Source: Nitrospirota bacterium
GTDB lineage: Bacteria > Nitrospirota > Thermodesulfovibrionia > Thermodesulfovibrionales > Dissulfurispiraceae
Direction: 5' to 3'
Assembly (NCBI GenBank): GCA_040754455.1
Contig: JBFMCP010000004.1
Location: 1 to 64,000 of the forward strand
Length of the DNA: 64,000 bases
The notes below the pieces were generated by a model. It was not told the DNA's origin, did not search any database, and worked only from the letters and a program-made list of their open reading frames with translations. A program made the position numbers and the translations under genes. Below are positions 576-42,481 of the stretch, piece by piece (the stretch's first letter is position 1; each line of letters begins with the position of its first letter).

Positions 576-622
576 GAGACCTCCTTTATTGTGAAAAAGA
601 ATCTAAAATGAGTAAGCGGAAA

Positions 623-1861: not shown

Positions 1862-1968
1862 ATAAAGAGAGCTTTACTCCTTTGCAAAAGTAGGGAAAAA
1901 CATCGGCTGCATAAGTCCTCAGCTCAAAGTACGAAATTCTAAAATGTTTCTGATTTCGTGTTTCGAAT

Positions 1969-3882
1969 TTAGTATTTTCCTTTTTGCTCATAGCCTCGTG
2001 GTGTAATCATTAAATTGTTCCAGGTGGAGGTCTTTGAGTTCCCGATGATAACGGTCGTCTGCATATCGATATCGTGATCGAGCATATGCTCGAGATCAGT
2101 GATAACGACAGCTTCGTTCTCCCTCATCGCCCCTTTGACGATGCCCACCGGCGTCTCGGGTTTTCTGTATTTCATGATGATTTCGTGTGCCCGGTTGATA
2201 TGCTCCACTCTGCCTCTGCTCTTTGGATTGTAGAGCGCAATGACGAAGTCAGCCATTGCTGCTGCTTCAAGGCGCCTTTCGATAACGTCCCACGGTGTCA
2301 GCCGATCAGAGAGACTTATGGAGGCAAAGTCATGCATGAGGGGAGCGCCGAGCCGTGATGCACAGGCATTCAGGGCGGAAATGCCGGGAATGACCTCGAC
2401 GGACAGTTGACAGGTGATAGCTGATTGCGGGCGGCTTTTAAGGAGCTCAAACACCAGTCCTGCCATCGCATAGATGCCGGGGTCGCCGCCGCTGATGACG
2501 GCAACGGTTTTACCGCTCTCAGCGAGCTCAACTGCCGCTTTGCACCGGTCCACCTCCTGGGTCATGCCGGTGGAGACGACTTCTTTGTCTTTGATAAGTT
2601 CCTGTATCAGATCCAGATAGGTGCCGTACCCGACAATAACATCTGATTTCCTGATCGCATCCTGAGCGTAAGGAGTAATATGCTCGATGCTCCCCGGTCC
2701 GGTGCCGACAATGTAAATCTTTTCATGATGATCCGGTGAATCGGTGCATGGGTGAATCGGTGAAGCTGAACTTTCTTGTCGCTCCGATTCTTTCCCTTCC
2801 CACTTCTCCTTGTCCTTATGATTGATAAGTTCCGCAACTGCTATGGTCACATTACCCGCTTTCTGTTTCGAGATGAGAAGCGTATCAGCTCCGGCCGCCA
2901 GCAGCGCAGCCGGTTCGGCAACCGCATAGGCGCCTGTTGCCTTGAATACTGTTTCCGACGGTGCTATGCCGTTCACCTTGTTCAGATCATCAGGAGCAAA
3001 GATGACGATCTCGTAGCCGTATTTTTTTGCGAAATCAATGAGCCCCGGCTCCTTCGACTTCAGGTCGATAGTGGCAAGACGCTCTATGGACAGGAGCGAG
3101 AGATTATGTCCATGCAGTATGTTCTTTACCGTCTCTTCAATCTCCTGTGCTGAAGTGCCGCTGTTGCAGCCGATGCCGAGCACGAGGTTTTTGGGCCTGA
3201 GATAGAGTTGACCCTTAACCCGGCACGCGTGTGCCGGGCATCGAGGCTCTGAAGGAGGGAGGGATGTACGATACACATCCCTCTTATTGGTAATAACAAT
3301 ATCGGCAAACGGGGGATCAGCTACCCTCAAGAACTGATCGGGCAAGGTGAGGTCGAGCTCTGAATATACACGTAATGCCCCGTTGTTAATAAAGCGCGTT
3401 CCGATGTGTGGAACAAGCGTCCAGTCCTCAATGGCGAGCGCGTTCTCCTGTGCCCATAGATCAATCGAGGGGAGATGATTGATGTCGGAGGCGGTGGTAA
3501 TGACTGCCTCGCCGCCGAGGAACTCCGCTATCTGCCGTGCCCGCTCATTCGCGCCGCCGATATGCCCGCTCAAAAGACTGATGGAGAATTTTCCTCTTTC
3601 ATCGATAACAACCACCGCGGGATCAAGCTTTTTGTCTTTGATCAAGGGCGCGATAGTGCGCACCACAATCCCTGCTGCCATGATGAAAATGAGTGTCGTA
3701 CATTCATTCCAGAGGGCGGGGAGACTGTCTGCTCCAAACTTTTCAATGCGGGCGCGCGGATAGCGTCCTCTAAGCTTTTGGGCAAGTGCCCGTCCGTTAT
3801 CGGTTATATAAAAAATGACTGTGCTGTCTTGTCTGTCTTCGTGCATCCTGCTCCTGGTTTCCGATTTATTTGCGATATCCAT
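1969..3882 (-). CDS. cbiG/cbiH: CbiG-CbiH fusion (cobalt-precorrin-5A hydrolase + precorrin-3B C17 methyltransferase)
   Basis: N-part GIVVRTIAPLIKDKKLDPAVVVID, LSGHIGGAN, ITTASD, GIGC, VAEPAAL; C-part VGTGPG, ISGGDPGIYAMAG, HDFASISLSDRLTPW, TPRGY. Confidence 0.93.
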   Translation of the reverse strand: MDIANKSETRSRMHEDRQDSTVIFYITDNGRALAQKLRGRYPRARIEKFGADSLPALWNECTTLIFIMAAGIVVRTIAPLIKDKKLDPAVVVIDERGKFSISLLSGHIGGANERARQIAEFLGGEAVITTASDINHLPSIDLWAQENALAIEDWTLVPHIGTRFINNGALRVYSELDLTLPDQFLRVADPPFADIVITNKRDVYRTSLPPSEPRCPAHACRVKGQLYLRPKNLVLGIGCNSGTSAQEIEETVKNILHGHNLSLLSIERLATIDLKSKEPGLIDFAKKYGYEIVIFAPDDLNKVNGIAPSETVFKATGAYAVAEPAALLAAGADTLLISKQKAGNVTIAVAELINHKDKEKWEGKESERQESSASPIHPCTDSPDHHEKIYIVGTGPGSIEHITPYAQDAIRKSDVIVGYGTYLDLIQELIKDKEVVSTGMTQEVDRCKAAVELAESGKTVAVISGGDPGIYAMAGLVFELLKSRPQSAITCQLSVEVIPGISALNACASRLGAPLMHDFASISLSDRLTPWDVIERRLEAAAMADFVIALYNPKSRGRVEHINRAHEIIMKYRKPETPVGIVKGAMRENEAVVITDLEHMLDHDIDMQTTVIIGNSKTSTWNNLMITPRGYEQKGKY

Positions 3883-4621
3883 GTTTGAAATCCTTGTCGT
3901 ACAGCTTCGATTCTTTGCCTAAAGATAGCTCCGAGGCCTTGAGAGACTCGCCGACATATATGAGGGCGGTCTTTTTGATGCCCTTCTGCTCTACTATATC
4001 TGCAATATTCTTGAGCGCGCCCCGGACAATCTTTTGCCCGGGCCATGAAGCTTTCTCGATAACGACGACCGGGGTGTCTTCGGGATATCCCTGCAGCAAC
4101 TCGTCTCTGACCTTGGCGATCATGCCGACGCTCAGAAAGATCACCAGCGTTGCCCTATGCTTTGCCAGGTCGCTCAGCCGTTCGGATTCAGGAACAGGGG
4201 TCCTCCCCTCAAGCCTCGTGAATATGACGGTCTGGCTTATTTCGGGTATCGTGAGCTCCTGTCCGAGCACCGCAGCCCCTGCCATTGCCGAGGAGACGCC
4301 CGGGATGACCTCATATTCGATATACAGCTCTCTGAGCTTCTCGATCTGCTCGGAGATTGCACTGTAGAAGGCGGTATCCCCGGTATGGAGTCGCACAACG
4401 GTTTTTCCCTCTGCTATCGCATGTCTCATGACATCGATGGTTTCCTCAAGGGTCATGGAAGCGGAGTTGTGGATTTCCGCCTTGATTCCCTTAAGAAGCT
4501 CGGGATTTACGAGGCTTCCGGCATAGATGACCACGTCAGCCTGATCGAGCAGACGTCTGCCCTTGAGCGTAATGAGCTCCGGATCGCCCGGGCCGGCGCC
4601 GATGAAGTAGACTTTACTCAT
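3866..4621 (-). CDS. cbiF: cobalt-precorrin-4 C11-methyltransferase
   Basis: VYFIGAGPGDPELITLKG, YAGSLVN, RLHTGD, ELTIPEISQTVI. Confidence 0.95.
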   Translation of the reverse strand: MSKVYFIGAGPGDPELITLKGRRLLDQADVVIYAGSLVNPELLKGIKAEIHNSASMTLEETIDVMRHAIAEGKTVVRLHTGDTAFYSAISEQIEKLRELYIEYEVIPGVSSAMAGAAVLGQELTIPEISQTVIFTRLEGRTPVPESERLSDLAKHRATLVIFLSVGMIAKVRDELLQGYPEDTPVVVIEKASWPGQKIVRGALKNIADIVEQKGIKKTALIYVGESLKASELSLGKESKLYDKDFKHGYRK

Positions 4622-5411
4622 GAGTTGCTCCTTGTATCCTCTGGTGTATGTAGTCGAGCAGAAAGGCGGTCATGTTTTTGATCTCCTCTGTCTGGGGTAG
4701 CGTGGCCGCAACCCGCTTCAGGTAATCGTGCTCGACCATGATTTTGAAAGAGGAGGTGAAATTCAGATCGAATACCCAGGCCATTTTCGCCATCTTGAAA
4801 TCGGTGAGCGTCCGGAGCATGGTGAGGGGCACCAGCTGTCTTTTTAGAATAGTTGCGACGATCTCTTTTGAATATTCAGGACTGTCGGGCAGGCCGAGCC
4901 CGGCAACAGAAGCCCTCTCTTCTTCGGGAGCATCGTAATATTCGAAAAACACCCGCCAGATATCGAGCTTGTCCGCGTCACGTACCAGCTTCAAAAGCAG
5001 CACCGCAAAGGGATCTGCTATATCGGGTATTCGGTAGGTATTATGGAATTTGACCACAGTGATGACGACCTGCTGTTCCTCTTCAGGCAGTCTTTTCAGG
5101 ACCTGCCGCTCCTCGAGGACTTTTGCACCCAGCTCCCCATGGTTTACCGAGGCGCTGTCCCTGAAGGTCCTGTACTGTGCATACTGAGGAAATCTTCCCA
5201 CATCGTGGAAGAGGCCAGCGGTTTCGGCCAGCAAGAGCTCGTTGTCATTGAGCGCCTGCCCCTGTGCAAGCCTGACGATGTTGCTGCAAACGTGGGCGGT
5301 ATGCTGTTCTTTGAGAACGATATTCTTCTGATCCTCCTTATTGGAGGAGTAAAATGACGCGCAGTAATCACTGAACCACTGTCTGAAAAACGAGAGATCG
5401 CCCCGTTTCAT
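4614..5411 (-). CDS. HD-domain metal-dependent phosphohydrolase
   Basis: H...FHDVGRFPQY...NHG...HN...RDADKLD; overlaps both neighbouring genes. Confidence 0.85.
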   Translation of the reverse strand: MKRGDLSFFRQWFSDYCASFYSSNKEDQKNIVLKEQHTAHVCSNIVRLAQGQALNDNELLLAETAGLFHDVGRFPQYAQYRTFRDSASVNHGELGAKVLEERQVLKRLPEEEQQVVITVVKFHNTYRIPDIADPFAVLLLKLVRDADKLDIWRVFFEYYDAPEEERASVAGLGLPDSPEYSKEIVATILKRQLVPLTMLRTLTDFKMAKMAWVFDLNFTSSFKIMVEHDYLKRVAATLPQTEEIKNMTAFLLDYIHQRIQGATHE

Positions 5412-6172
5412 TTTTTTACAATCACCGTCGAAAAGTAGTTGAGCTCTTTTCCCCTAAGGCTTTGTATGTCCTCAATGACCTGTTCGTCTTCCATGCCCGC
5501 CCGTGAGATGTAGGTGGCTTTCATGGTGAGGTGCATCTCATCGAGAAGAGCGAGGACTTTGTCAAAGACCTTATGCACCTTCATGAGGACGACGGTATCG
5601 AACCGTTCGAGCACGTCTTTCAAATCATCAGTGCTGTAGGTCGCTGGAAGAACGGCGACCCGTTCATCAGCAAGGCCCAGGGATATCCCGGCCCTCGCGG
5701 CTGATGCGGTGATGGATGATATGCCGGGAACGAACTCGATACGCAGCTCCGGATTCAGATCGATGAGCCGATCGTGCAGGTAAAAGAAGGTGCTGTAGAT
5801 TGTCGGGTCGCCGATGGTAATAAAGGCCATATCCGTTCCCTTATTGAGAATGCCCGATACCGTTTTCACTGTCTCATTCCATTTCATATCCAATCCGGAA
5901 TGATCAGAGCCAGGATCGTTTTTCTCTGTGCTCTCTGCCCTGTGCTCTGCGCTCTGATGTCTGGTCTTTCTCATGGGGAAATAGGCCTCGATGATTTCCT
6001 TGCCATCCAGATCGATAGCCTTCTTTACAATGGAAAGGGCGAGGCTGCTTCCCTCCTCTTTCCCCTTGGGAACGCAGACGCACGGAACGGTTTTGAGAAT
6101 CCGCACCGCTTTAAGGGTAAGGAGCTCGGGGTCACCCGGGCCGACACCTATGACGTAAAGAGTTCCTGCCAT
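5408..6172 (-). CDS. cbiL: cobalt-precorrin-2 C20-methyltransferase
   Basis: GVGPGDPELLTLKA, ITIGDPTIYSTF, VPGISS, VLMKV. Confidence 0.93.
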   Translation of the reverse strand: MAGTLYVIGVGPGDPELLTLKAVRILKTVPCVCVPKGKEEGSSLALSIVKKAIDLDGKEIIEAYFPMRKTRHQSAEHRAESTEKNDPGSDHSGLDMKWNETVKTVSGILNKGTDMAFITIGDPTIYSTFFYLHDRLIDLNPELRIEFVPGISSITASAARAGISLGLADERVAVLPATYSTDDLKDVLERFDTVVLMKVHKVFDKVLALLDEMHLTMKATYISRAGMEDEQVIEDIQSLRGKELNYFSTVIVKK

Positions 6173-6215
6173 ATGTTATTGAACCCTCTCGTAATGTATT
6201 TTGTTCTGATCGAAT

Positions 6216-7610
6216 TCAGTGTCCTTGTGCGGCGCCGGCTGCTCGGGTGGATAGTCCAGAGGCATGATATCGAGCATGCCGTTCTCCTCGTATCACAAAG
6301 ACGGGATTCAACGGTGAAAAATAATTACCCGTGCCGATTTCTTTCATCCTCGATATCGAGACCTGGGTAACGTCAATCTGAAAGCCGGCGCTTTCGAGCT
6401 TGCCGATTGCCTCACGCAGTGTTTCAAGTGTCGCTGCATTGATCACTACAATGCCTGAATGCATAGCGGCTGCTAGAGTGTCGACAATCCCTGTAAGCTG
6501 TCCGGCACTGCCGCCGATGAATACCCTGTCGGGAGCAGGGAGATCTTGCACCGCACCGGGTGCGGTCCCCTCTATAATCTCAAGATTCGGGACAGCGAAC
6601 TGTGCTTTATTGGTTTTGATATGCTCTATCTGCTCACTATTCTGCTCGACGGCAAAGACCTTGAGCCCCGGAAAGAGCCGCGCCGCCTCAATGGATACTG
6701 ATCCTGACCCCGCTCCGATATCCCACAGTACGCCATGGGAGGGAAGCTTCAATTTATGAATGGTTATCGCCCTTACTTCGTCCTTTGTTATGAGCCCCCT
6801 TGAGTGGTTTATCCGATTCTCTGTCAATCCGAACCTGATGTCCGGCTTCCGGCTTCCCGAAACGGCGCTACACGAAGACTCGCTCCGGCCGGCTTCCCGA
6901 TACGGGCCTTCGCTGAGGGTCGCTCCGGCCGGCTTCTGGATTATGATGACCACATTCGGCTCAGAGAAGGTCATCCCCGCAATTTCACCGGGGGTTCCTT
7001 CAGTGATCCGCTCGTCGGGATAGCCGAGCTTTTCACCGACATGCATCTTAATTTCAGATTGCTGATCGCTGATTGCTGATGCAAGAAATCCCGCTATAAC
7101 TGAAGGGTTATTTTCTTTATCAGTAAGGATCGCGAGTTTATTGTAGTGCTGAAGCAAAGAGGGGATATCGTCGATGGTATAGGGCAGCCGCCTTCTCTTG
7201 ACAGGGTCAGGTCCGCCGTGAAGGCTCATGAGGAACGCATCATCCCAGGCTTCCTTTATCCTCGCAAAGGCGATCTGGATGCTCGACAGTTCCGGGATTA
7301 TTTCGACGGCATCTTTCCCGAACTCCTTGACGGCTCTTCTGCCGATGCCGAAAAACATCGGATCGCCGGACGCGAGGAGAACTACCTTCTCGGTCTTATA
7401 ATGCTGATGAATGAACGCAATGGTTTCATCAACGTTATTGATCTCTCTGATGCGGGCTCTTGCCGCATCAAACTCTTCGTAACGCATGAAGACCTCGAGG
7501 AGCCTTCTGGACACGAGAATGCTGTCGGCCTTGAGAACGATCGCACGCGCCTTCTCATTGAGCGGCTTGTAGCCGATGCCTATGACATATAGTTTACTCG
7601 CTGCTTCCAA
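6216..7610 (-). CDS. cbiET: bifunctional precorrin-6Y C5,15-methyltransferase CbiE/CbiT
   Basis: LASGDPMFFGIG, ITKDEVRA, WDIGAGSGSVSIE, PDRVFIGGS; probable TTG start at 7610 after AAGGAG (ORF-track start lies inside cbiD). Confidence 0.9.
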   Translation of the reverse strand: MEAASKLYVIGIGYKPLNEKARAIVLKADSILVSRRLLEVFMRYEEFDAARARIREINNVDETIAFIHQHYKTEKVVLLASGDPMFFGIGRRAVKEFGKDAVEIIPELSSIQIAFARIKEAWDDAFLMSLHGGPDPVKRRRLPYTIDDIPSLLQHYNKLAILTDKENNPSVIAGFLASAISDQQSEIKMHVGEKLGYPDERITEGTPGEIAGMTFSEPNVVIIIQKPAGATLSEGPYREAGRSESSCSAVSGSRKPDIRFGLTENRINHSRGLITKDEVRAITIHKLKLPSHGVLWDIGAGSGSVSIEAARLFPGLKVFAVEQNSEQIEHIKTNKAQFAVPNLEIIEGTAPGAVQDLPAPDRVFIGGSAGQLTGIVDTLAAAMHSGIVVINAATLETLREAIGKLESAGFQIDVTQVSISRMKEIGTGNYFSPLNPVFVIRGERHARYHASGLSTRAAGAAQGH

Positions 7611-8754
7611 TGATAGCTCCTTCGTAAGAAACGAGACAGGTTGTAACCGGAATTCCGCCGGTGATCCCTTCGCTGTACCGCTGAGCGGCGGCGCACACCC
7701 CGGCAAAGATTTCGGATTTGTGTTTGCTGGGTGATGAGCTGACGAAATCAAAGATGTCCCGTGCCGTGTTGAACTCCTTTGCAGCACGGGACAGGCCTGT
7801 GTCCATCTTCGCCAGGAAAGCCAGGGCTTTTTTTATCTCCAGGGCCCCATGCCGTACATGCGTCTGGGGTGTTGCCATGGCGATTTTGATCATTTTCGCC
7901 CACTGGGCGGCGAGGTGGACTTGTTTGAAATCGTGCTTTTTGGCTTCGAGAAGCGAATATTCGAGATAGTCGCCCATCATGACATATGCCTCGTCAGGGA
8001 GATGATACTTTCTCATGTGCGCCCGTTCGGAGGCCCTGCCGGCGGAAAGCACAACTATTTCGCTCCCCGAAGCTTTCGCTACATCCATAGAGGCGGTAAT
8101 CGTTGCGGTCCACGCCTCGGAAGAGACGGGACGTACTATGCCCGTCGTACCGAGTATGGAGATACCGCCGATGATGCCCAGTCGTTCATTCAACGTCTTC
8201 TTCGCCAATTTCTCTCCTTTAGGAACGGAGATGGTCACTTCGATGTCCAGTGCGGAAGCGCGGAAGCCCGGAAACCCGGAAACCTCGGATAACGCCTCTT
8301 TGATTGCCGCTTCGATCATTCTCTTCGGGACAGGATTTATTGCAGGTTCTCCGACAGCTACGGACAACCCGGGTTTGGTAACCGTGCCAACGCCTTTGCC
8401 GCCCTTAATGAGAAGCGACGGTGCATTGAGAAGAACTCTCCGTTTCTCCGGTCCATGCAAAAATGTTGCTGTTGCAACGATCTCGGCTCCGTTTGTCACA
8501 TCGGGATCATCTCCCGCGTCTTTTATTACCGATGCCCATGCCGAGGGTCCGTCGGACCCGGATCCTGAATCGTGAATTGCGAACCTCACCCTACCGCCGT
8601 CAGGAAAAGGAATCTCTACATCCGTGATGAGTGAGTTGTCGTTACTCATCGTGCATAACGCCTTGCGCATTACAAGTAATGTCGCTGCCTTAGCCGCTGC
8701 TGCAGCACAGGCGCCGGTGGTGTATCCAGAACGGAGCGCTTTCTTTCTTAGCAT
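7594..8754 (-). CDS. cbiD: cobalt-precorrin-5B C1-methyltransferase
   Basis: LRSGYTTGACAAAAAKAA, KDAGDDPDVTNG, GEPAINPVP, GISILGTTGIVRP. Confidence 0.96.
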   Translation of the reverse strand: MLRKKALRSGYTTGACAAAAAKAATLLVMRKALCTMSNDNSLITDVEIPFPDGGRVRFAIHDSGSGSDGPSAWASVIKDAGDDPDVTNGAEIVATATFLHGPEKRRVLLNAPSLLIKGGKGVGTVTKPGLSVAVGEPAINPVPKRMIEAAIKEALSEVSGFPGFRASALDIEVTISVPKGEKLAKKTLNERLGIIGGISILGTTGIVRPVSSEAWTATITASMDVAKASGSEIVVLSAGRASERAHMRKYHLPDEAYVMMGDYLEYSLLEAKKHDFKQVHLAAQWAKMIKIAMATPQTHVRHGALEIKKALAFLAKMDTGLSRAAKEFNTARDIFDFVSSSPSKHKSEIFAGVCAAAQRYSEGITGGIPVTTCLVSYEGAIIGSSE

Positions 8755-9266
8755 TCTATGCCGATCCTTGCCTTCACGCCTTTATCATAGTAGTGTTTGA
8801 TCTCCCTCATCTCGGTAACGAGATCCGCCTTGTGCATAATCCGTTCATCGGCATATCTGCCGGTAAGGACCAGTTCCACAGGAGTAGGCTTCTGTTCCAG
8901 GAGGTCGAGAACGTCGTCGACCTCCAAAAGACCATAATGGAGCGCAACGTTGATCTCATCGAGAATCACCAGATCGTATTTCCCTGAAGTGATGATCCCT
9001 GTCACCTCGGCAAGGCCCTTTCGCGCTGCGGCGAGCGCTGCCTTTGAAGGCTTGTTCCCGCGCAAAAAGCCGGTACCGTATTGCTTGACCGTGATATGCT
9101 TGCCGAGCTTTTCGAGGATCTTATGCTCGCTGCAGCGTTTCATCTTGACGAATTGCGCGATGTATATTTTTAGCCCTGCACCGGCTGCCCTGATGGCAAG
9201 TCCCAGTGCCGCCGTGGTCTTCCCCTTGCTGTTTCCCGTATAGACCTGTATGTATCCTTTACGCAT
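8748..9266 (-). CDS. cobO: cob(I)yrinic acid a,c-diamide adenosyltransferase (CobO/BtuR type)
   Basis: VYTGNSKGKTTAALG, LDEINVAL, ELVLTGR, ADLVTEM. Confidence 0.93.
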   Translation of the reverse strand: MRKGYIQVYTGNSKGKTTAALGLAIRAAGAGLKIYIAQFVKMKRCSEHKILEKLGKHITVKQYGTGFLRGNKPSKAALAAARKGLAEVTGIITSGKYDLVILDEINVALHYGLLEVDDVLDLLEQKPTPVELVLTGRYADERIMHKADLVTEMREIKHYYDKGVKARIGIEC

Positions 9267-9310
9267 AACACGTAGGAAGTAAGAAGTAAGGAGTAAGAGA
9301 TGAGATGCTT

Positions 9311-10186: not shown

Positions 10187-10926
10187 ACGAACCCCATAAT
10201 AAGAAGAAGCATGAGCGACGCAAGAATCTCGGAGGGCCTGAATGGTTTGTGCTTTAGCAGTGGCATATTGCCGTCATATCCCCTCTGGATCATCGAGACG
10301 GTGGTATTTTGACTATGCTCAAATGCCTTAAGCACCAATGAGCCCGTTAATGTTCCGAAAGAATTCAGCCCGCGGCGCATGTTTGAATAGCCAAGCCTGT
10401 TCCGCTGCGCCTGATAAATGACCATTGCCTCTTCGAAGAGGACAAAGATATAGCGATAGGCAAACATTAATATTTCAATAAACCCTTTGGGAACTCGAAG
10501 CCAGGCGAGTCCTGCCATGAGCTCGGTAAAGGGTGTGGCAAAGCCCAGCAAGGCAACGACGGACACAGCGCCGATGATGCGTGCTGCAATTACAAGACCG
10601 CTTATAAGGCCGTCCCTATGCCCTGTTATGGTCAAGCCGAAAATGTCGAAGGAAAAGAGTATGTCTCTGCCGGAGAAGAGAAACTTGATCAGTACCACCA
10701 TCCCTACAATAAAGACCGGCTCAGAGAACCTGAGCAGGAAGACCCTGACCGGAATGTTCATTCGCAGACAGAGGGCAAGGCAGAGAGAGGCTGTAATCAG
10801 CGGGAATGCAAAGCCTTTGTAGCTCAGAACCATAATAAGAAGCACTGCAGCCACCAGGATTTTTACCCGTGCATCTATTTTTGAAAGATGATGGTCTTTT
10901 TTAAAATGTTCGGAAAAGATATTCAT
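10174..10926 (-). CDS. cbiQ: cobalt ECF transporter T component
   Basis: IDARVK start, hydrophobic helices, YRYIFVL, RGYDG. Confidence 0.9.
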   Translation of the reverse strand: MNIFSEHFKKDHHLSKIDARVKILVAAVLLIMVLSYKGFAFPLITASLCLALCLRMNIPVRVFLLRFSEPVFIVGMVVLIKFLFSGRDILFSFDIFGLTITGHRDGLISGLVIAARIIGAVSVVALLGFATPFTELMAGLAWLRVPKGFIEILMFAYRYIFVLFEEAMVIYQAQRNRLGYSNMRRGLNSFGTLTGSLVLKAFEHSQNTTVSMIQRGYDGNMPLLKHKPFRPSEILASLMLLLIMGFVWQI

Positions 10927-10950
10927 TTATCTCACTATTGCCAGGACAAT

Positions 10951-11301
10951 TTATCCTTTTGTTGTCTTCGATAAAGCGTGATTTTCGTCAGTAGTACGGT
11001 CATCCTGCCTTTGCTCAATAAGTTTCCGCCACGAATACCCTGCTATAAACCCTCCGATTGCACCGGCAATCAGGAAAACAAACAGGAGCAGGTCTCCCTG
11101 ATCCGTGTTGATGAGCGGTTCTCGTGCTTCCCTTCCGTGTTCCTTGGCGAATTTTTCGACCACCGATTCATCAACGCCGCTCCATTTCTCGCTGCCGAAG
11201 GCAGCCAGAGAACAGAGTACAGAGAACAGAACACAGACTAAGACAACCCGTATTCTGTATTTATTTTTCTGACGTCTGACGTCTGACTCCTGTGTTTTCA
11301 T
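10951..11301 (-). CDS. small cobalt transporter membrane subunit (CbiN-like)
   Basis: Two hydrophobic segments around WSGVDESVVEK; lies between cbiM and cbiQ. Confidence 0.7.
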   Translation of the reverse strand: MKTQESDVRRQKNKYRIRVVLVCVLFSVLCSLAAFGSEKWSGVDESVVEKFAKEHGREAREPLINTDQGDLLLFVFLIAGAIGGFIAGYSWRKLIEQRQDDRTTDENHALSKTTKG

Positions 11302-12089
11302 ATCGTTACCTCTCCCGGTTTTATCACATGCATTTTCACAAGGAGATCCGGCCTTTTTTTGTAAAGCAGCGTTACCATCCCGGCTGTCATTGCCCCTTCA
11401 AGGATTCCGAGGGGGAGCTGGGTGGGGATAAAGGCGATGAGTATCTTCCAGAAAAGAGGGCTAAAGGGCGAGTCCCCCTTTATGCCTGATGCAAGTTCTG
11501 CCGATGTTGTGATGTATGTTGCCCAATCTGCAAGGAGTCCTGCTGCAAAGCCTGCAATCGACACGTTTATTTTCATGGTACGCAATGCCCTGAATGTCAA
11601 AAAGCCTGCAAACGATCCCATCACGCCCATCGAAACAATATCGGCACCCCAGGTGCTCAATCCTCCATGGGCGAGAAAAAGCGCTTGGATGAGGAGCGCA
11701 ACGGCAGTAATCAGGATACTGATCGCGGGCCCCACGAGAATCCCCGATATGCCGGTGCCGCAGGGATGGGAGCAGGTGCCTGCCGTCGGCACCGGTATGG
11801 GCATGCAGGAGATGATGAAGACCACCGCCGCCATAAGCCCGACAAGAGGTTTGAATGACAGATCGATGGATGATATCTTTTTAAGCTTATAAAGCCCATA
11901 GAGTACAAAAGGAACAGCAACGAGCGACCAGAAGAGTGCCCACTGAAAGGGAAGTATCCCTTCTGAGATATGCATTGCATGCGCATCCGAGACAGTGAAA
12001 AGTAGAAATGTAGGGAGAAAGAATCCTATCTTCTGTCCTTTTCCGTTTTCAGCCTTCTGTCTTTTGTCTTCAGGTTTTTGTCTTCTCAT
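11298..12089 (-). CDS. cbiM: cobalt ECF transporter substrate-binding component
   Basis: AHA-MHISEGILP N-terminus after a leader, GTCSHPCG, LAHGGLSTWG, TQLPLGILEG. Confidence 0.93.
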   Translation of the reverse strand: MRRQKPEDKRQKAENGKGQKIGFFLPTFLLFTVSDAHAMHISEGILPFQWALFWSLVAVPFVLYGLYKLKKISSIDLSFKPLVGLMAAVVFIISCMPIPVPTAGTCSHPCGTGISGILVGPAISILITAVALLIQALFLAHGGLSTWGADIVSMGVMGSFAGFLTFRALRTMKINVSIAGFAAGLLADWATYITTSAELASGIKGDSPFSPLFWKILIAFIPTQLPLGILEGAMTAGMVTLLYKKRPDLLVKMHVIKPGEVTI

Positions 12090-13081
12090 TCTTCCTCCGC
12101 CATTTTCAATAATGCATTTACAATTGCTACTGCTACAGGGGTGCCGCCTTTCCTGCTCAGGGTGGTGATGAAAGGGAATGATTGTGAGGCGAGCAATGCC
12201 TTTGACTCAAAGGCCTTTACAAAGCCTACCGGCACACCGACGACAAGAGGCGGTGAATCGATGAATTGGTGAATCGGTGACTTGAAAAGCTCTACTACTT
12301 TGAGCAGGGCAGTCGGTGCGTTGCCGATGGCGACGATGCCGACGTTTTCATCAAACCCTTTCTCGATGGCAATTTCCGCGCGTGTCTTTCCTGTTGTTTC
12401 CGAGAGCTGTGCCACATCATCATCCGAAATAGCGCAGATGACCTTTCCGCCCCATCGTTCAAGGCGTTTCTTGCTGATGCCCGTTTTCACCATCTCCACA
12501 TCGGTGAGGATGTTCTTCCCCGCCCTGATGGCCTTGATCCCCGCTGCAACTGCGTCCTTATGAAACGTAAGGGTCTGTTTAAAATCGAAGTCAGCGGTGG
12601 CATGAATGACGCGTTTTACGATGGGAAGCCGTTCTGCGGGGATGTCCCTGAGGTCGAGTTCCTCTTCGATAATCTCGAAGCTTCTCTTTTCAATCATCTC
12701 GGGGACATAGTTGCCGGCAGCATCGATTCTTTCCTTTACGATCTGGGCGAGCTTCTCATGAATGCCGAGCGGCTCGGTATAAATGAACTCGATGTCGGGA
12801 TAGGCGGCCCGGGCCTCAGCGATGATTTCCGGAATATCTTTGGTCACGTGCATTCCTGCACTCAGGAAGAAAGGATGAAGGACAATTCTCCCGGCACCGC
12901 TCCGGGCACATTCATCAATAGTTTCTTTGATATCCGGCGACACAAACTGGAGATAGGCGACCTTAACGCAATCACTGGCGCAGCCGGGGTGGACGGTGCT
13001 GTGCACCATGCTGCCTACCTGCTCGAGATTGTTAGCACCCTGTTTAGGACTGCCGTGGCCTACGAGTATTATCTTTTCCAT
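12086..13081 (-). CDS. cbiX/cbiC: CbiX cobaltochelatase-CbiC precorrin-8X methylmutase fusion
   Basis: N-part LVGHGS, PFFLSAGMHVTKDIP, EPLG.H; C-part IEKRSF, RVIHATAD, IGNAPTAL, GVPVGFV, GGTPVAVA. Confidence 0.9.
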   Translation of the reverse strand: MEKIILVGHGSPKQGANNLEQVGSMVHSTVHPGCASDCVKVAYLQFVSPDIKETIDECARSGAGRIVLHPFFLSAGMHVTKDIPEIIAEARAAYPDIEFIYTEPLGIHEKLAQIVKERIDAAGNYVPEMIEKRSFEIIEEELDLRDIPAERLPIVKRVIHATADFDFKQTLTFHKDAVAAGIKAIRAGKNILTDVEMVKTGISKKRLERWGGKVICAISDDDVAQLSETTGKTRAEIAIEKGFDENVGIVAIGNAPTALLKVVELFKSPIHQFIDSPPLVVGVPVGFVKAFESKALLASQSFPFITTLSRKGGTPVAVAIVNALLKMAEEE

Positions 13082-13088
13082 AATGCGG

Positions 13089-14597
13089 TTATATCTCCCT
13101 TATATAATGTACGAAGTTGCGGGCGATGCCGGAATTGCTCCCGAAGTGGACATGGATATAACTGGCGAGCGCTCTTTTCGTGCGGTATCCTTCGCTGAGG
13201 AGCGGCTGTCCCGATTTGTCTCTGACCGAGTAGATAGTCCCCATATCAGAAGTCAGCGTACAGAGACCGGAATTCAGACTTTTTTCTTTGTCTGTTCTCC
13301 GGCTTTTGGCTTCCGGCTTCCGATATCCGTCTTTTATCTGCGAGTAATGAAATTCATGCCCCCTGCAGGTTTCGCCCTTGGCCCCCAGAATGCAGTCCTC
13401 CTCGAGCAGAACCTCCCGGTACCCGAGACGGGACCTGCCCTTTTTCATCTCGGTCTCGAATGGAAAGGCCCCTACCATAGGGAAAAAGGTGCCGGTAAAA
13501 TCGTAAATGCCCTGCGAGAGATACATCAGTCCTCCGCATTCGGCATAAACAGGTTTGCCGGCCTGTATCCAATCATTGATACGATGAAGCATCGAGGCGT
13601 GTTTTGAGAGCTCACCTGCATAGAGTTCCGGATAGCCGCCGCCGATATAGAGGGCGTCTATATGTTCCGGCAGACGGTCATCAGAGAGAGGGCTGAAAGG
13701 AACGACTTCTGCCCCTCCCTCTCGCAATGCATCGAGATTGTCCTCGTAGTAAAAGCAGAAAGCCTTATCGTAAGCAATAGCAACTCGCGGTGGACGGGAG
13801 AATCGGTGCATCGATGAAGATGCTTTTCTTTTCTTCTCCGGGGCTCCCGTTCCCCGTTTCGTCGATGCAAGAAGTTTGTCTATATCGATATATTCCGATA
13901 CGGCATCCGCGAGCTTTTCGATATCCTCTTTTGCTAGAGGGCTCTCTTCAGCCACCGTAAGCCCGAGGTGGCGATGCGGGATCTCGAACTGCAGGTCCCG
14001 CGGGAGATACCCGAGGACTGGGATGTCCTTAACACTCTCCTTGAGCCGCGCATAGTGGCTCTCGGAAGCGACACGATTGAAGATGACCCCGGCAATTCCA
14101 GGAGCCGGAGAATCGGAAGATCGGTGCATCGGTAAATCGGTGAGTTCTCCGCTTCTGAGAGTGGTTTTCTCCATGTCGCTGTATCTCCGTGTCTCCGCAT
14201 CATAAGAAATGAATCCCTTCACCACCGCTCCTGCGCTTTCGGCCATTCCGTATGCATCGACAACGAGGAGTACCGGGAGTCCGAGGAGCTGTGCCAGGAG
14301 AGCGGTGCTGCTATCGCCGTCGTACATGCCCATGACCCCTTCGACCACGGTGATATCCGCATCTGCCGCATATCGCCCGAAACAATCGATGACGTAGTCC
14401 TGTCCGCACATCCATATATCAAGGTTCCTGGAGGGCCGCCCGGTAATAAGCCGGTGCAGCCCGGCATCGATGAAGTCAGGTCCTGTCTTGAAGGCCTGAA
14501 CCTCCAGGCCCTTTTCCCTGAGTGCAGCAAGGATACCGAGTGTTACGGTAGTTTTGCCGCAGCCGCTATGTGTGCCCGCTATGACGATGCCCTGCAT
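13089..14597 (-). CDS. cbiA: cobyrinate a,c-diamide synthase
   Basis: SGCGKTT, FKTGPDFID, EGVMGMYDG, GGGYPEL, AECGGLMYL, GHEFHYS. Confidence 0.95.
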   Translation of the reverse strand: MQGIVIAGTHSGCGKTTVTLGILAALREKGLEVQAFKTGPDFIDAGLHRLITGRPSRNLDIWMCGQDYVIDCFGRYAADADITVVEGVMGMYDGDSSTALLAQLLGLPVLLVVDAYGMAESAGAVVKGFISYDAETRRYSDMEKTTLRSGELTDLPMHRSSDSPAPGIAGVIFNRVASESHYARLKESVKDIPVLGYLPRDLQFEIPHRHLGLTVAEESPLAKEDIEKLADAVSEYIDIDKLLASTKRGTGAPEKKRKASSSMHRFSRPPRVAIAYDKAFCFYYEDNLDALREGGAEVVPFSPLSDDRLPEHIDALYIGGGYPELYAGELSKHASMLHRINDWIQAGKPVYAECGGLMYLSQGIYDFTGTFFPMVGAFPFETEMKKGRSRLGYREVLLEEDCILGAKGETCRGHEFHYSQIKDGYRKPEAKSRRTDKEKSLNSGLCTLTSDMGTIYSVRDKSGQPLLSEGYRTKRALASYIHVHFGSNSGIARNFVHYIREI

Positions 14598-15655
14598 ACC
14601 CGTGCAAGCTCCTTGAGTAATCGACTGTTTTCTTTGTGAGACCGTACCGCTATCCTTATGTAGGAGCCCGCAATCCCAACGAAGTTGGAACAGTCCCTCA
14701 CCAGAATTCCCCTCTGCCGTAGCAGGCGGACTATTGTTGATGCATGCTCAATCCGTAGGAGATAGTAGTTTGCGGCAGAAGGAATATACGTTATCTGCAA
14801 GCGTTTCAACTCTCTCTCGATGAACTTTTTCTCCTCCCTGATAACCTTGAGCGTCTCCTTTTTATATGCGGCATCATCCAGCGCAGCAATGCCTGCTCTC
14901 TGGGCAAGGGTGCTTACGGTCCATGGCTCTTTATGTCTTTTTACGGTCTCTACAAGGGAGAGAGGGAAGACGCCGAAACCGAGGCGCAGTCCAGAGAGGG
15001 CATAGAACTTTGTCATTGACCGCAACACGATGAGATAGGGATTGGTCTCGACCTCCTTGATGATTGATTGTCCCGGCACAAAATCGATGAAGGCTTCATC
15101 AACAACGAGATGGCATTGTAACGCCCTTGCCGCATCTGCTATGCCGAGGAGGGTCTTTCTCTCGATGAGCCGTCCCGTCGGATTATTGGGATTACAGAGA
15201 AAGGCCAGAGTACAGCCTTCCATGGCATTGATGAAGTGGTCGGGATTGATATCGAAGCTGTTGCTTCCATCGAGCAGCGGATGCCTGATCGTTATCTTTT
15301 TTTCACGGTACTGTAGTTTCACTGCCCGTTCGTATTCACAGAACGTCGGTGCGGGAATGACCGCATGTGCGGATTTGAGCGCGCGTGCGACTAAATGGAT
15401 CAATTCGGTACTGCCATTGCCGCAGATGATCGATTCGTGATTGATCCCGTACTTCTTTCCGATCCGTGCTGCAAGTTGGCCTGCATCTGGATCGGGATAG
15501 TGGTAAAGATATCGGATATGCTTTCTGATTGCAGCGGCAACACTCTGAGGGACGCCAAGGGGATTGATCGAAGCGCTGAAATCGAGGATCTTCTGCTCCG
15601 GGACCTCCAGCTCCCGGGCTGCTCGGTAGATATTGCCGCCGTGGGATTCCATCAT
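14579..15655 (-). CDS. cobD: L-threonine-O-3-phosphate decarboxylase
   Basis: HGGN, DFSASINPLG, CNPNNPTG, DEAFIDF, RSMTKFYALSGLRLG. Confidence 0.92.
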   Translation of the reverse strand: MMESHGGNIYRAARELEVPEQKILDFSASINPLGVPQSVAAAIRKHIRYLYHYPDPDAGQLAARIGKKYGINHESIICGNGSTELIHLVARALKSAHAVIPAPTFCEYERAVKLQYREKKITIRHPLLDGSNSFDINPDHFINAMEGCTLAFLCNPNNPTGRLIERKTLLGIADAARALQCHLVVDEAFIDFVPGQSIIKEVETNPYLIVLRSMTKFYALSGLRLGFGVFPLSLVETVKRHKEPWTVSTLAQRAGIAALDDAAYKKETLKVIREEKKFIERELKRLQITYIPSAANYYLLRIEHASTIVRLLRQRGILVRDCSNFVGIAGSYIRIAVRSHKENSRLLKELARVCRASS

Positions 15656-16650
15656 GATACATGCCTCAGGGAGAGCAATGCGGCAGCAGCGCCGATGCCG
15701 AGCAGAGCAGTCGCTTTTGCGATCTGGAGTGCCAGTTCTGATGCCGCCATATAATCCTCTGCCCTGTTCTCACCGATATAGGGCTTTTCGAACAGTATGC
15801 CGCCATAGGTTGCAGGTCCGCCCATCCTGATGCCGATGGCGCCGGCCATGGCAGCTTCGGGAATGCCGCTGTTCGGGCTCGTATGGTTTCTGCCGTCGCG
15901 GCGCATGACCGCAAAGGAGGAGCGGGCGGCAGATGATGTCCGCCCTTTCTTCAAAAGGGTAATGATAAAAGTTGCGGCAACGATGAGCAGTCCGGTGATC
16001 CGTGCCGGCAGATAATTGGCGATATCATCCAGACGCGCTGCTGCCCAGCCGAAATGCAGGTACCGCCCGTTCTTGTACCCAACCATGGAGTCGAGGGTGT
16101 TGACCGCCTTGTAGGCGATGGCGAGCGGAAGGCCGCCGATGACCAGATAAAAGAGCGGAGCGATGATGCCGTCCGACAGGTTTTCTGAAAGCGTCTCCAT
16201 GGCTGCTTTCAGTATCTCTCTCTCGGAGAGGTTCCGGGTATCGCGGCCGACGATCATGCCGAGATAGTTCCGTGCTCCCTCGATATTTTTTGTGCTCACC
16301 GCATGGATGACAAGCCGGACCGCGGCAATGAGCTCCCGGACGGCAATCGTGGTCGAGACCAGGTAAACGAGGACGAGCGATCCGAGCGCTGTTCCGATAG
16401 TGCCGGGCAGTGTTCTTGCGACAGCAGTAATAAACAGAGCGACGAGGAAGGCAGGGATGACGATTGACACGACAAGGATGACGCCGCCGAGCCGCTCGCC
16501 TGAAGGCCCCTTCAGGTGGCTTCTGATCATTCTTTCCGCTCTGTCTATGGCGTGCCCCATACCCCGTACCGGATGGGGCAGCCATCGGGGGTCGCCGATC
16601 GCGCTATCGAGCAGAAAAGCGAGGAGCAGCTCTACCGGCGTTATCATCAT
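15652..16650 (-). CDS. cbiB: adenosylcobinamide-phosphate synthase
   Basis: GDPRWLPHPV, IVGRDT, ENLSDGIIAP, YKAVNTLDSMVGYK, SPNSGIPEAA; ATGA overlap with cobQ stop. Confidence 0.95.
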   Translation of the reverse strand: MMITPVELLLAFLLDSAIGDPRWLPHPVRGMGHAIDRAERMIRSHLKGPSGERLGGVILVVSIVIPAFLVALFITAVARTLPGTIGTALGSLVLVYLVSTTIAVRELIAAVRLVIHAVSTKNIEGARNYLGMIVGRDTRNLSEREILKAAMETLSENLSDGIIAPLFYLVIGGLPLAIAYKAVNTLDSMVGYKNGRYLHFGWAAARLDDIANYLPARITGLLIVAATFIITLLKKGRTSSAARSSFAVMRRDGRNHTSPNSGIPEAAMAGAIGIRMGGPATYGGILFEKPYIGENRAEDYMAASELALQIAKATALLGIGAAAALLSLRHVS

Positions 16651-18200
16651 AGCCCTATAATCCTCTTCACGAACTCCATGTCGATATGTTCCCTTACCAC
16701 TGCAGCCAGATTGTCGATCGCCCTGTCTTTCATACCGGCATAGCTGCAGGTTGATCCGAGGGGCGGCAAACCTTTTTTTATCCGTATACCGTCCACGACG
16801 CATCTTCTGAATGTGTCATTATCAAAAATGCCGTGGATATAAGTGCCCCAACAGTTTCCATTTCTCGAACCGTCGAGAACATAGGTGTCGATGAATCGGT
16901 GAATGGGTGAATCGGTGCTGTTGCCTCTCCTTTTCAGCTTGAACAGCCCGATATCTCCCGTACTCTCGCCCATGTGGATTTCGTAGCCCTTCAAGGTAAG
17001 GGAAGGGGAATCGGTGAATGGATGAATCGGCGAATCGAACATCGGTTCATTGATCTCCGCCTCGACCTGACAGGTAGTTTTGCGTTTCTCAAAGAGTGTT
17101 TCGATATTGAGAAGGCCTAACCCGTCTATCTCCTTATACGGGCTCTCGACGCCGTGGGGGTCCAGAAGCCTCCTTCCCAGCATTTGATAGCCGCCGCACA
17201 TTCCCATGACCTGGACTCCTTTTGCATGAGCACGCCGGATGCTTTCATCAATACCGTGCTCCCGTAAAAAAAGGAGGTCCTTTACCGTATTCTTCGAGCC
17301 GGGGATGATGACGAGGTCGGCATGCTCGATGTCCGCAGGATTTGTGGAATAGATGAGCGCTACATCGGGCTCGTAGACAAAAGGATCAAAATCCGTAAAA
17401 TTGGAAATAAAGCGAAGCTTTATTACAACGATCTTTACTACCGTTGCTCCCGTCTTCTGGTTACCGGCTCCTGACTTCCGGGCGAGCGCCATCCCGTCCT
17501 CTTCAGGCAAGCCGATATTATGGATATAGGGAAGGACGCCGATTACCGGTGTTCCTGTTTTATCCCGGATCATGTCGAGCCCCGGCTGGAGTATGGCGAG
17601 ATCGCCGCGGAACTTATTGATGAGGAATGCCTTGATGTGTCTGCTGTCCCTGCCGAGGAGCTTGACGGTGCCGTAGAGCGAGGCGAAAACACCCCCTTTA
17701 TCGATGTCACCCACGAGGACCACCGGTGCCCTGGTATGTTTTGCCACCGACATGTTCACTACATCGACATCCATGAGGTTGATCTCGGCAGGGCTCCCCG
17801 CACCCTCGATGATGATCAGTTCATGCTCTCTTGAAAGTCTGCTATAGGATTTTTTTACCGATTCCCAAGCCTCCTTTTTGAATGCATAATATTCCCGGGC
17901 CCTCATGGTGGCATGGACTTTGCCATGGATAATCACCTGGGACCCGATTTCTCCTGATGCCTTGAGGAGAATGGGGTTCATATCCACGGTTGGTGCGATC
18001 CGCGCTGCTTCTGCCTGGAGTGCCTGGGCTCTTCCAATCTCTCCGCCCTCTGCGGTGATGTAAGAATTGAGCGCCATATTCTGCGCCTTGAACGGCGCCA
18101 CAGCCTTTCCCTCATCCCTGAATATCCTGCAGAGGGCTGCAACGAGAAGGCTCTTGCCTGCACCCGAACCGGTGCCCTGTATCATCAATGCCTTAGCCAT
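16647..18200 (-). CDS. cobQ: cobyric acid synthase
   Basis: QGTGSGAGKS, PFKAQNM, EGAGSPAEINL, SNFTDFD, CGGYQMLG, GYEIHMG. Confidence 0.96.
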   Translation of the reverse strand: MAKALMIQGTGSGAGKSLLVAALCRIFRDEGKAVAPFKAQNMALNSYITAEGGEIGRAQALQAEAARIAPTVDMNPILLKASGEIGSQVIIHGKVHATMRAREYYAFKKEAWESVKKSYSRLSREHELIIIEGAGSPAEINLMDVDVVNMSVAKHTRAPVVLVGDIDKGGVFASLYGTVKLLGRDSRHIKAFLINKFRGDLAILQPGLDMIRDKTGTPVIGVLPYIHNIGLPEEDGMALARKSGAGNQKTGATVVKIVVIKLRFISNFTDFDPFVYEPDVALIYSTNPADIEHADLVIIPGSKNTVKDLLFLREHGIDESIRRAHAKGVQVMGMCGGYQMLGRRLLDPHGVESPYKEIDGLGLLNIETLFEKRKTTCQVEAEINEPMFDSPIHPFTDSPSLTLKGYEIHMGESTGDIGLFKLKRRGNSTDSPIHRFIDTYVLDGSRNGNCWGTYIHGIFDNDTFRRCVVDGIRIKKGLPPLGSTCSYAGMKDRAIDNLAAVVREHIDMEFVKRIIGL

Positions 18201-19700: not shown

Positions 19701-19753
19701 AGATTACAATTCAAAATTTAAAATCTATTTCTTTATTTTTGAATTTTCCTTTT

Positions 19754-42299: not shown

Positions 42300-42481
42300 C
42301 CGACAACAAGGCAGAAATCAGTCGGAGCGACCCTTCGCGTAGACCCGCTTCGGGAAGCCAGAATGCAGAATTCAGAATAACGTATTTTAAAGGGTTTGTG
42401 AATATTTGCCGTTATTCTGACTCCTGAATTCTGGCTTCTGTATTCTAATATTCTGACTTCTTGTTGATAAAAATGGTATAA

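Follow-up and report, generated by a model that had tools for sequence, protein, structure and literature searches.

The first 64,000 nucleotides of contig C4 (C4:1-64000, hereafter the window) of a groundwater Nitrospirota bacterium contain seven degenerate tandem arrays of an eight-base unit, (ACCGATTC / ATTCACCN)n, which lie in frame in the genes for a CbiG-CbiH fusion, a CbiX-CbiC fusion, CbiA, CobQ and RsmE. On balance, we favor the reading that these arrays belong to an octamer family spread through the lineage, of which they are translated copies that have become fixed and are slowly decaying; slippage and copying are the mechanism that we infer for their formation. To judge from the repeats themselves, they would belong to the type of repetitive DNA known as short tandemly repeated repetitive sequences (STRR) or long simple sequence repeats (long SSRs), and form one of more than 100 families with 7- or 8-base units in this genome. 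Rather than a classical jumping gene, they would represent the output of a repeat-forming process that acts throughout the genome and has counterparts in other bacteria. The genome, referred to as G000, comprises 3.27 Mb in 92 contigs and has a GC content of 52.5%; other G numbers denote the genomes with which it was compared.

A preliminary description of the window, made from its letters, had reported these arrays together with their host genes and in-frame peptides, and all of these assignments were confirmed by Tandem Repeats Finder (TRF), by a scan for 24-base stretches of three units in which at least 19 of the 24 positions match, by NCBIfam matches and by translation (Table 1). All seven arrays pass the 19-of-24 scan and have the head-to-tail arrangement of 5-11-base units typical of long SSRs and STRR; at six of the seven sites TRF reports a period of 8 with 3.0-3.9 copies and 77-86% matches, the weakest array being that at 13788-13820 in cbiA. 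The peptides encoded are SPIHPCTDSP, SPIHQFIDSP, SSMHRFSRPP, TDLPMHRSSDSP, TDSPIHRFID, DSPIHPFTDSP and THSPIH and, as had been stated, ACCGATTC stands on the coding strand in all seven cases. In the unit, TTCACC (in most cases ATTCACC) forms an invariant core, accompanied by one or two bases that are free to vary.

Table 1. Arrays, host genes, contigs of other sequencing runs and the repeat hotspot, in window positions
Feature	Positions	Strand	Remarks
Octamer array, about 4 units	2726..2769	-	Encodes SASPIHPCTDSPDH; CbiG/CbiH interdomain linker, residues 372-386 of the fusion
Octamer array	12246..12286	-	Encodes KSPIHQFIDSPP; loop in the CbiC part of CbiX-CbiC, residues 266-279
Octamer array, weak, decayed	13788..13820	-	Encodes SSSMHRFSRPP in CbiA, residues 260-270
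Octamer array	14106..14147	-	Encodes LTDLPMHRSSDSPAP in CbiA, residues 151-164
Second octamer array, other unit, CACGGAGA (coding strand)	14168-14197		Adjoins the CbiA array 14106-14147
Octamer array	16884..16921	-	Encodes STDSPIHRFID; CobQ loop 2, residues 427-439
Octamer array	17003..17039	-	Encodes FDSPIHPFTDSPS; CobQ loop 1, residues 388-400
Octamer array, ATTCACCC type	57239..57281	+	Encodes LILPSTHSPIHLI in RsmE, directly before the GPEGG motif
cbiG-cbiH fusion gene (host)	1969..3882	-	NCBIfam TIGR01466 4.3e-101, NF004466 2.5e-76
cbiX-cbiC fusion gene (host)	12086..13081	-	NCBIfam NF004057 1.5e-56, NF033198 1.2e-21
cbiA/cobB gene (host)	13089..14597	-	NCBIfam NF002204 5.1e-146, match split in two stretches
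cobQ gene (host)	16647..18200	-	NCBIfam NF001989 4.1e-186
rsmE gene (host)	56687..57457	+	NCBIfam NF008692 7.4e-66
Cobalamin operon stretch, top period-7/8 repeat hotspot, all unit types	600..19800	-	TRF-array sliding-window count
Contig of run X2	11505-18300		11 substitutions, no gap
Contig of run X5	12096-18300		59 substitutions over 6.2 kb, no gap
Contig of run X5	1900-3840		54 substitutions, no gap
Contig of run X8	16804-17068		1 substitution, no gap

Exact copies of GAATCGGT number 10 in the window against 2.65 expected, and 10 was reached in none of 100 shuffles. Across G000, the 19-of-24 scan detected octamer arrays at 23 loci on 12 contigs, including the seven of the window, which is the dispersal of a single unit that marks long SSR and STRR families. 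The same scan returned one array in an order-5 Markov genome and none for the reversed unit; 20 shuffled units gave 0-7 arrays each (zero for 12 of them), and the top counts belonged to other real repeat families. Together with the presence of the unit in 64 of 401 Nitrospirota genomes (see below), the 23 loci uphold the earlier view that a single dispersed repeat family is involved. Called genes contain 15 of these arrays, compared with 1-6 in five protein-preserving synonymous-codon shuffles and 0-2 in five codon-order shuffles; the excess over the synonymous shuffles indicates that the periodicity belongs to the DNA and not to the peptide. That the motif might be no commoner than in codon-shuffled controls, as the preliminary description had allowed, thus proved not to be the case. 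Fourteen of the 23 arrays are situated within 12 unrelated housekeeping genes that have firm family matches, and all 14 have the stop-free strand as the sense strand; the hosts outside the window are LpxK, a glycogen-synthase-like transferase, a DUF401 protein, RibF, MiaA, a radical-SAM/DUF2344 protein and a MiaB-like enzyme. The arrays show no preference for genes, as their in-gene share is 61% (14/23) while 84.5% of the genome is coding according to the gene calls.

The complementary strand reads GGTGAA at every junction of an array and hence contains a TGA there, as had been correctly noted. Since the unit length of eight is not divisible by three, this TGA falls in all three frames of that strand, so that only one orientation is possible in an open frame; the stop-free orientation within genes is therefore forced and carries no information. 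The selective filter previously invoked stands for orientation inside genes, where the claim that the arrays are always in the stop-free orientation also holds, though trivially; for the family overall that claim fails, the orientation being reversed in the spacers of array-rich genomes (61 of 68 arrays, described below).

To place the arrays within their hosts, the proteins were aligned with orthologues from up to 22 related genomes (CobQ 20, CbiA 18, CbiX-CbiC 17, CbiG-CbiH 7, RsmE 22). Every array site of the window proved to be an indel-rich, hypervariable loop or linker with unrelated sequence in the relatives. The linker of the CbiG-CbiH fusion, between domains that NCBIfam delimits at residues 22-351 (CbiG) and 389-632 (CbiH), is variable or missing among the relatives; the CbiX-CbiC loop differs in length, with SP mostly retained at both of its ends; and the CbiA loop at 14106-14147 is missing or different. 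In an AlphaFold2 model of CobQ (40-sequence alignment; mean predicted local distance difference test score, pLDDT, 87.5), the two arrays coincide with two of the four segments that have a pLDDT below 50, namely 394-400 and 427-436. For CobQ the model thus predicts that the array loops are floppy, and the array sites as a group appear to be indel-tolerant surface loops and linkers; the orthologue alignments and the low-scoring CobQ segments bear out the earlier placement of the arrays in loops.

The same octamer occurs in the same register in other genera, and the segments are therefore not fresh insertions peculiar to G000. In G013, which belongs to another genus, both CobQ loops contain the octamer peptide in an unchanged register, and CobQ loop 2 contains the same octamer in the same register in G138, G191 and G008; the CbiA site of the 13788-13820 array reads HSPIHPFTHSP in G002, and G008 carries the same octamer in LpxK and RsmE at the positions found in G000. 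The possibility, raised in the preliminary description, that orthologues contain these segments as ancestral sequence is consequently realized in part, at several sites, and these sites are at the same time indel-rich in orthologues. G001, a member of the same genus that the CobQ tree places as sister to G000 (support 95/93), has a CobQ protein without an array of this family, and its genome contains no match to the pattern used for the phylum-wide scan below; the relatives next in line share only about 70% CobQ identity. A recent transfer or recombination tract linking the cobQ genes of G000 and G013 was considered and rejected: the loop surroundings are identical at 23-26 of 40 positions, which are largely the arrays, and the tree joins G000 with G001.

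Within genus g8, CobQ proteins are 73-89% identical, yet the content of loop 2 differs. It consists of four perfect ATTCACCN units in G138 and G191 and of a decayed array in G008, while in G114 (L266) and G230 (L268) four perfect TCACGCA heptamers, encoding ITHHASRI, replace the octamers. Loop 1 of the g8 proteins contains in-frame heptamer hairpin pairs, and in both CobQ loops of G013 both arms of an octamer hairpin are in frame, the purine arm being degenerate enough to leave no in-frame stop. These comparisons suggest that the array loops are long-lived repeat nests with fast turnover, and that the G000 copies, at about 80% matched, are old. The ACGCATC unit, as in the heptamers of G114 and G230, is also among the abundant families of G000. 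The CbiA loop corresponding to residues 235-260 of G000 reads SFPLVGNLS...EGLRTSRNDK in G002 (L109) and G030 (L117) and, in related form, ...PMRGRNDK in G015 (L105); this appears to be another repeat translated in frame and looks like a different dispersed element in that loop.

The array in rsmE merges into sequence native to the gene. Its last 1.5 units (TCA CCC ATT CAC) encode S-P-I-H, within an S-P-I-H-L stretch that is conserved in the family, and beside the GPEGG motif the array-free relatives G002, G014, G007 and G013 retain TCA/TCC CCC ATT CAC (S-P-I-H). The array may thus either have grown from a native proto-repeat or have been seeded via that microhomology. Because it ends in native sequence, local expansion or microhomology has to be reckoned with, and the earlier assertion that the arrays did not arise by independent local slippage is not borne out.

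Metagenome contigs of three other public sequencing runs, from other studies (X2, X5 and X8; Table 1), span arrays with 0 gaps, so that four independent assemblies, G000 included, agree in array length. The arrays covered are fixed between strains about 1% apart, although contigs hide rare variants; no presence/absence difference at array sites was seen in these three assemblies, up to about 1% divergence, and copy number does not vary among their contigs as it does in phase-variable contingency SSRs. Neither conserved flanks nor termini were found: the information content of the 30 bases to either side of an array, over all 23, is ~0.1 bit per position, equal to the small-sample bias, and the arrays have no conserved body with defined termini of the sort seen in miniature inverted-repeat transposable elements or Rickettsia palindromic elements (RPE). 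An inverted partner is not significant for 13 of the 14 coding arrays (P > 0.14) and marginal for the remaining one (C47; P 0.014); four of the nine non-coding arrays have one, always upstream of the ATTCACC arm. The idea that the cbiG-cbiH linker is a read-through spacer hairpin was dropped, as its upstream inverted arm is not significant (P 0.58). No candidate for a mobilising gene was seen beside the arrays, in agreement with the preliminary description. Its proposal of invasion by a mobile element finds no support in arrays that lack conserved flanks and termini and show no length polymorphism in the three other assemblies.

The octamer family is part of a much larger population of short-period repeats, for arrays of this kind are far more numerous in G000 than chance allows. 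With a TRF score of at least 40, G000 has 86 period-7 and 21 period-8 arrays, against one of each in an order-5 Markov genome, and the best 240 arrays fall into 126 unit families, many of which also combine a fixed core with variable bases (e.g., CAGAA+NN). Of 182 period-7/8 arrays, 58 are in genes, 54 of these with the stop-free unit on the sense strand, and 90 are in spacers between co-directional genes. In such spacers the purine-rich form typically begins 0-10 bases past the upstream stop codon, and a complementary array often precedes the next start, giving an arm-loop-arm hairpin. The cobalamin (cbi) operon stretch is a hotspot for these repeats: it holds 17 period-7/8 arrays against 3.07 expected (P 3e-8), the highest count among 472 sliding 20-kb windows, and 12 in-gene arrays against 1.27 expected. 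The octamer family itself is clustered here, with six of its arrays within 14.3 kb where 0.10 would be expected (Poisson P 1.3e-9), and genome-wide, array pairs at most 3 kb apart have related units in 21 of 123 cases compared with 7.6 expected (P 2e-5).

For the distribution of the family across the phylum, we scanned 401 Nitrospirota genomes from 162 genera for the pattern TTCACCNATTCACCNATTCACC with at most two mismatches. The pattern is present in 64 genomes and 37 genera, patchily and across distant classes, and in 11 of the 35 genomes of the same family as G000; the load per genome ranges from 0 to 881 matches, as against at most 2 for a reversed-pattern control. The genomes richest in arrays, G044 and G053, which belong to genus g92 of another class (65% GC) and are relatives of each other, were studied over 447 kb picked for holding arrays, and this sample yielded 74 arrays of at least four units, with a maximum of 28. 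In these arrays the seven core positions are 94.5-99.8% conserved, while the eighth base is G in 47%, C in 28%, T in 23% and A in 3% of the units. Between neighbouring units the eighth base is nearly uncorrelated, with z values of 0.03 at lag 1, 2.7 at lag 2 and 2.0 at lag 3; the 28-unit array contains 26 exact cores, its free base varying among T, C and G. A link with the Type IIS enzyme HphI, which recognises GGTGA and cuts 8/7, was discarded, because this cut would miss the free base. Among 2.9 million viral contigs (IMG/VR), four (L171-L174; GC 34 to 62%) contain a 30-base array, each consisting of 4-6 ATTCACCN units with a single fixed eighth base, a number too small to bear on phages as carriers.

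Outside genes the family behaves differently from its coding copies. Gene calls in the array-rich genomes were based on GC content at third codon positions, and all 20 flanking open reading frames (ORFs) tested had Pfam matches; these calls replaced an assignment by ORF length, which at 65% GC had put 35 of the 74 arrays in ORFs. None of the 74 arrays is in a gene. Sixty-one are in co-directional spacers with GGTGAAT in the sense direction and seven in the opposite direction (61/68; binomial P 7e-12), three are in convergent spacers and three at contig ends. Of the 61, 46 begin between -22 and +11 of the upstream stop codon, which lies inside the array in 17; the distance to the next start has a median of 85 nt and is at most 15 nt in 13. 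In the rmlD-rmlB-rmlC-rmlA region of G053 (L205, 9952-13654), four successive intergenic gaps (the three between these genes and the one upstream of rmlA) each contain an array, with GGTGAAT in the sense direction in all of them. In G000, GGTGAAT is likewise the sense form in two of the four spacer arrays of the family, at distances from the stop of 4 and -22 bases. The main home of the family is thus the intercistronic spacer, in an orientation opposite to that of the in-gene copies, and outside genes the array often supplies the purine-rich arm of a hairpin (arm-loop-arm) whose starting point is the upstream stop codon. The RNA form of the repeat would be written (GGUGAAUN)n. GGUGA is potentially complementary to the 3' end of 16S rRNA, but no 16S rRNA is assembled in G000, G053, G044 or G035, where it was sought for this comparison; the distances to the next start codon argue against a general Shine-Dalgarno role.

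Where orthologous spacers could be compared between G053 and G035 (flank identity about 90%), arrays are present in both genomes but differ in length and free base; at one such spacer, about ten units stand against one. One spacer array of G035 (L233), aligned with that of G053 (L205) at columns 6528-6879, is broken by about 190 bases that comprise a C/G-rich hairpin and an (ATGACCA)n heptamer array. Spacers thus appear to collect several small repeat types.

Under the reading that we favor, arrays would be made and renewed via replication slippage and template switching, 7-8-base loops presumably escaping mismatch repair. New sites would be seeded by short-range copying, via microhomology, from existing arrays or native proto-repeats, and selection would remove copies that break frame or fold, so that survivors would be found in spacers and floppy loops and, within genes, without in-frame stops. 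In the lineage of G000 the octamer family would no longer be renewed; its coding copies would be fossils, lost only through exact in-frame deletion. Local seeding is supported by the clustering of related units within 3 kb, by the hotspot, which spans unit types, and by the rsmE proto-repeat; slippage in the array-rich genomes is supported by the weak lag-2 and lag-3 correlations and by the length differences between G053 and G035.

Several observations weigh against this reading. Duplication should give runs of like units, whereas the eighth base is nearly random beside a core that is 94.5-99.8% conserved; either the free base mutates much faster, or selection maintains the core, or the arrays are laid down from the start with one base left free. 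Nor does general slippage explain the patchy occurrence of one unit in distant classes (37 of 162 genera) and its absence from G001 of the same genus, or, even together with frame selection, the orientation bias of 61 to 7 in spacers. As a step of eight bases shifts the frame, growth within a gene requires 24-base steps or a ready-made block, a problem that favors copying-in over local growth. Finally, the register shared at about 70% CobQ identity calls either for very long persistence or for repeated site-specific seeding. The unexplained free base, cross-class sharing and spacer orientation keep two other explanations alive.

The first is a trans-acting writer or mobiliser that inserts ready-made arrays or hairpins, the coding copies being true insertions as originally proposed; candidates would be a nuclease acting on single strands, of the HUH type or another, or else a polymerase or reverse transcriptase that works from a short template. 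We consider this unlikely. It would account for a unit shared patchily by 64 of the 401 genomes at loads of 0 to 881, for the invariant core next to an almost random eighth base, most clearly seen in the 28-unit array, for the occurrence, among members of a single genus, of perfect arrays of four units that come from different families yet occupy one CobQ loop, and for the whole arm-loop-arm elements in frame in cobQ of G013, and it would not be hindered by the frame, which bars in-gene growth by single 8-base steps. However, such a system would demand many templates to produce 126 unit families in one genome, and it is difficult to reconcile with the lack of a candidate gene beside the arrays and of conserved flanks, with the absence of any presence/absence difference at the seven sites in the three other assemblies, with the merging of the rsmE array into native sequence, and with the mere four viral contigs in 2.9 million.

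The second explanation, which we likewise consider unlikely, is that the family acts in cis as a functional element in the mRNAs of operons: the GGUGAAU motifs that follow stop codons would bind a protein or the ribosome, or would fold into protective hairpins similar to repetitive extragenic palindromic (REP) sequences and bacterial interspersed mosaic elements (BIME), the intercistronic hairpins of enterobacteria. The core would then be under selection and the in-frame copies of opposite orientation would be non-functional by-products. The g92 arrays are what such a function would lead one to expect in that none is in a gene (a placement backed by the Pfam matches of the flanking ORFs), 61 of 68 share one orientation, most start near a stop codon that is often included in the array, and successive rml gaps each have one; a conserved core with a drifting eighth base is the prediction of purifying selection on a motif, and orthologous spacers retain arrays though the free base differs. 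A cis-acting role is silent, however, on how copies reach protein loops; the arrays are anchored at the upstream stop rather than at the next start, and the regions were chosen for their arrays in two related genomes. MacGregor 2015 (PMC4679880) put forward the same kind of role for TAACTGA repeats.

It is very improbable that selection acts on the peptide module (TDSPIHRF)n as such, which might, say, serve these enzymes in common for docking or regulation and be merely mirrored by the DNA repeat: the shared register in several genera and the lack of indels between strains would suit it, but protein-keeping codon shuffles give far fewer arrays than are observed, the nearest relative G001 and most genera do without the peptide, in other genera the same loop carries repeat peptides of unrelated sequence, modelling shows the loops as disordered, and the unit is used in all three reading phases. 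Phase-variable contingency loci that toggle genes via 8-base slippage, suggested by in-gene repeats with a unit length that is not a multiple of three, can hardly be credited for degenerate arrays (about 80% match) in the middle of genes for biosynthetic enzymes, which have identical lengths in contigs of three other runs, rare variants apart, since contigs hide these.

Among the closest known systems are the STRR, short tandemly repeated heptamers of heterocystous cyanobacteria that Mazel et al. are said to have described in 1990. Both consist of dispersed head-to-tail units of the 7-base class with several families per genome, and STRR are mostly intergenic, often as inverted hairpin pairs. 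The present family differs from them in its Nitrospirota host, in an 8-base unit with a free base that is shared across classes of the phylum, and in its many translated copies in housekeeping enzymes; it is therefore no STRR in the strict sense, although similarly built heptamer families co-occur. REP and BIME resemble the non-coding members, which form hairpins in intercistronic and 3' operon regions, but here the arms are built of tandem 7-8-base units, and no RAYT-like gene was found, though no search aimed at one was made. RPE, which Ogata et al. reportedly described in 2000 as in-frame selfish DNA of about 100-150 bp with conserved sequence and palindromic ends, likewise place repetitive DNA in frame at fold-compatible surface positions of unrelated housekeeping proteins; unlike RPE, the arrays have no conserved flank, and the coding copies are plain tandem arrays, 13 of the 14 lacking a significant inverted partner.

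Long SSRs with units of 5-11 bases were described by Mrazek et al. 2007, as summarized in PMC4679880, as present in genome-specific excess in scattered lineages, with heptanucleotides commonest; that summary names polymerase slippage as the proposed origin and has in-gene repeats mainly with units that are multiples of three. G000 shows a comparable genome-specific excess of long-unit tandem repeats, but its 7- and 8-base units occur in frame, with 58 of 182 arrays in genes. Alike in behavior are the TAACTGA direct repeats of marine Beggiatoaceae, Cyanobacteria and Bacteroidetes (MacGregor 2015, PMC4679880), for which no mechanism was found either. Although the unit is another one (ATTCACCN here), the two agree in their orientation rule, patchy spread and intercistronic habitat: a single unit occurs patchily over distant lineages with no known vehicle and mostly between cistrons in one orientation, the forward strand has stops in three frames, and only the reverse is found in ORFs, encoding LSVISYQ there and TDSPIHRF here. 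The TAACTGA arrays differ in lying just upstream of start codons instead of being anchored at the upstream stop, and those within ORFs mostly affect hypothetical proteins or the ends of proteins, not internal loops of conserved enzymes.

A literature search found no paper on hepta- or octamer repeats in Nitrospirota or on an ATTCACCN family. The present analysis adds the phylum-wide octamer family with a free base, its orientation-locked stop-codon habitat, the replacement of units at one loop within a genus, and the cbi hotspot. If our reading is true, the supply of 7-8-base repeats would be a major source of new loop sequence in conserved enzymes throughout the phylum, and the same process would furnish operon spacers. 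Its single core, its free base, its strictly ruled orientation outside genes and its patchy distribution would make the octamer family a clean marker with which the origin and movement of STRR-type repeats can be approached through array-rich and array-free sister genomes. For annotation, such loops would explain odd insertions, split hidden Markov model matches and low-confidence model segments in ordinary proteins. One may even imagine, with little confidence at present, a sequence-specific, orientation-locked system for writing or maintaining repeats in Nitrospirota and, by analogy with the TAACTGA repeats and STRR, perhaps in other phyla, in which a trans-acting factor would lay down or preserve arrays of a 6-7-base core with its free base(s) as arm-loop-arm hairpins immediately behind stop codons, from where they would spill into permissive loops; such DNA would form a class that propagates itself without genes of its own, shaping the mRNAs of operons and constantly altering the surfaces of enzymes.

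Other short repeats were also noted in the window. The cbi hotspot includes arrays of CGGAAACC at 8253-8289, CTCTGTG at 5924-5956 and AGCACGGA at 1091-1114. An intercistronic heptamer array of the operon, (TTCTTAC)n at 9272-9298, has its last base 5 nt ahead of a start codon, an array pair of the GTCAGAC and TCTGTTC types at 11206-11287 occupies the region 10951-11301, and (TTCAAAA)n at 19737-19767 overlaps the end of the upstream gene. The GC skew of C4 over 0-116 kb is +0.07 to +0.09 at + strand genes and -0.03 to -0.01 over the - strand cbi operon, a faint hint, to be taken as a lead only, that the + strand may be the leading strand and that the 19-kb operon may be lagging and head-on to replication. 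In a region of + strand genes, heptamer arrays that belong to the CAGAA/TTCTG family, (ATTCTGA)n and (CAGAATG)n, are found between genes at 42359-42461. Within the gene at 6216-7787, a 40-base unit is repeated 2.2 times at 6849-6936 (81% match, TRF score 113) and overlaps a TCCGGCT heptamer run.

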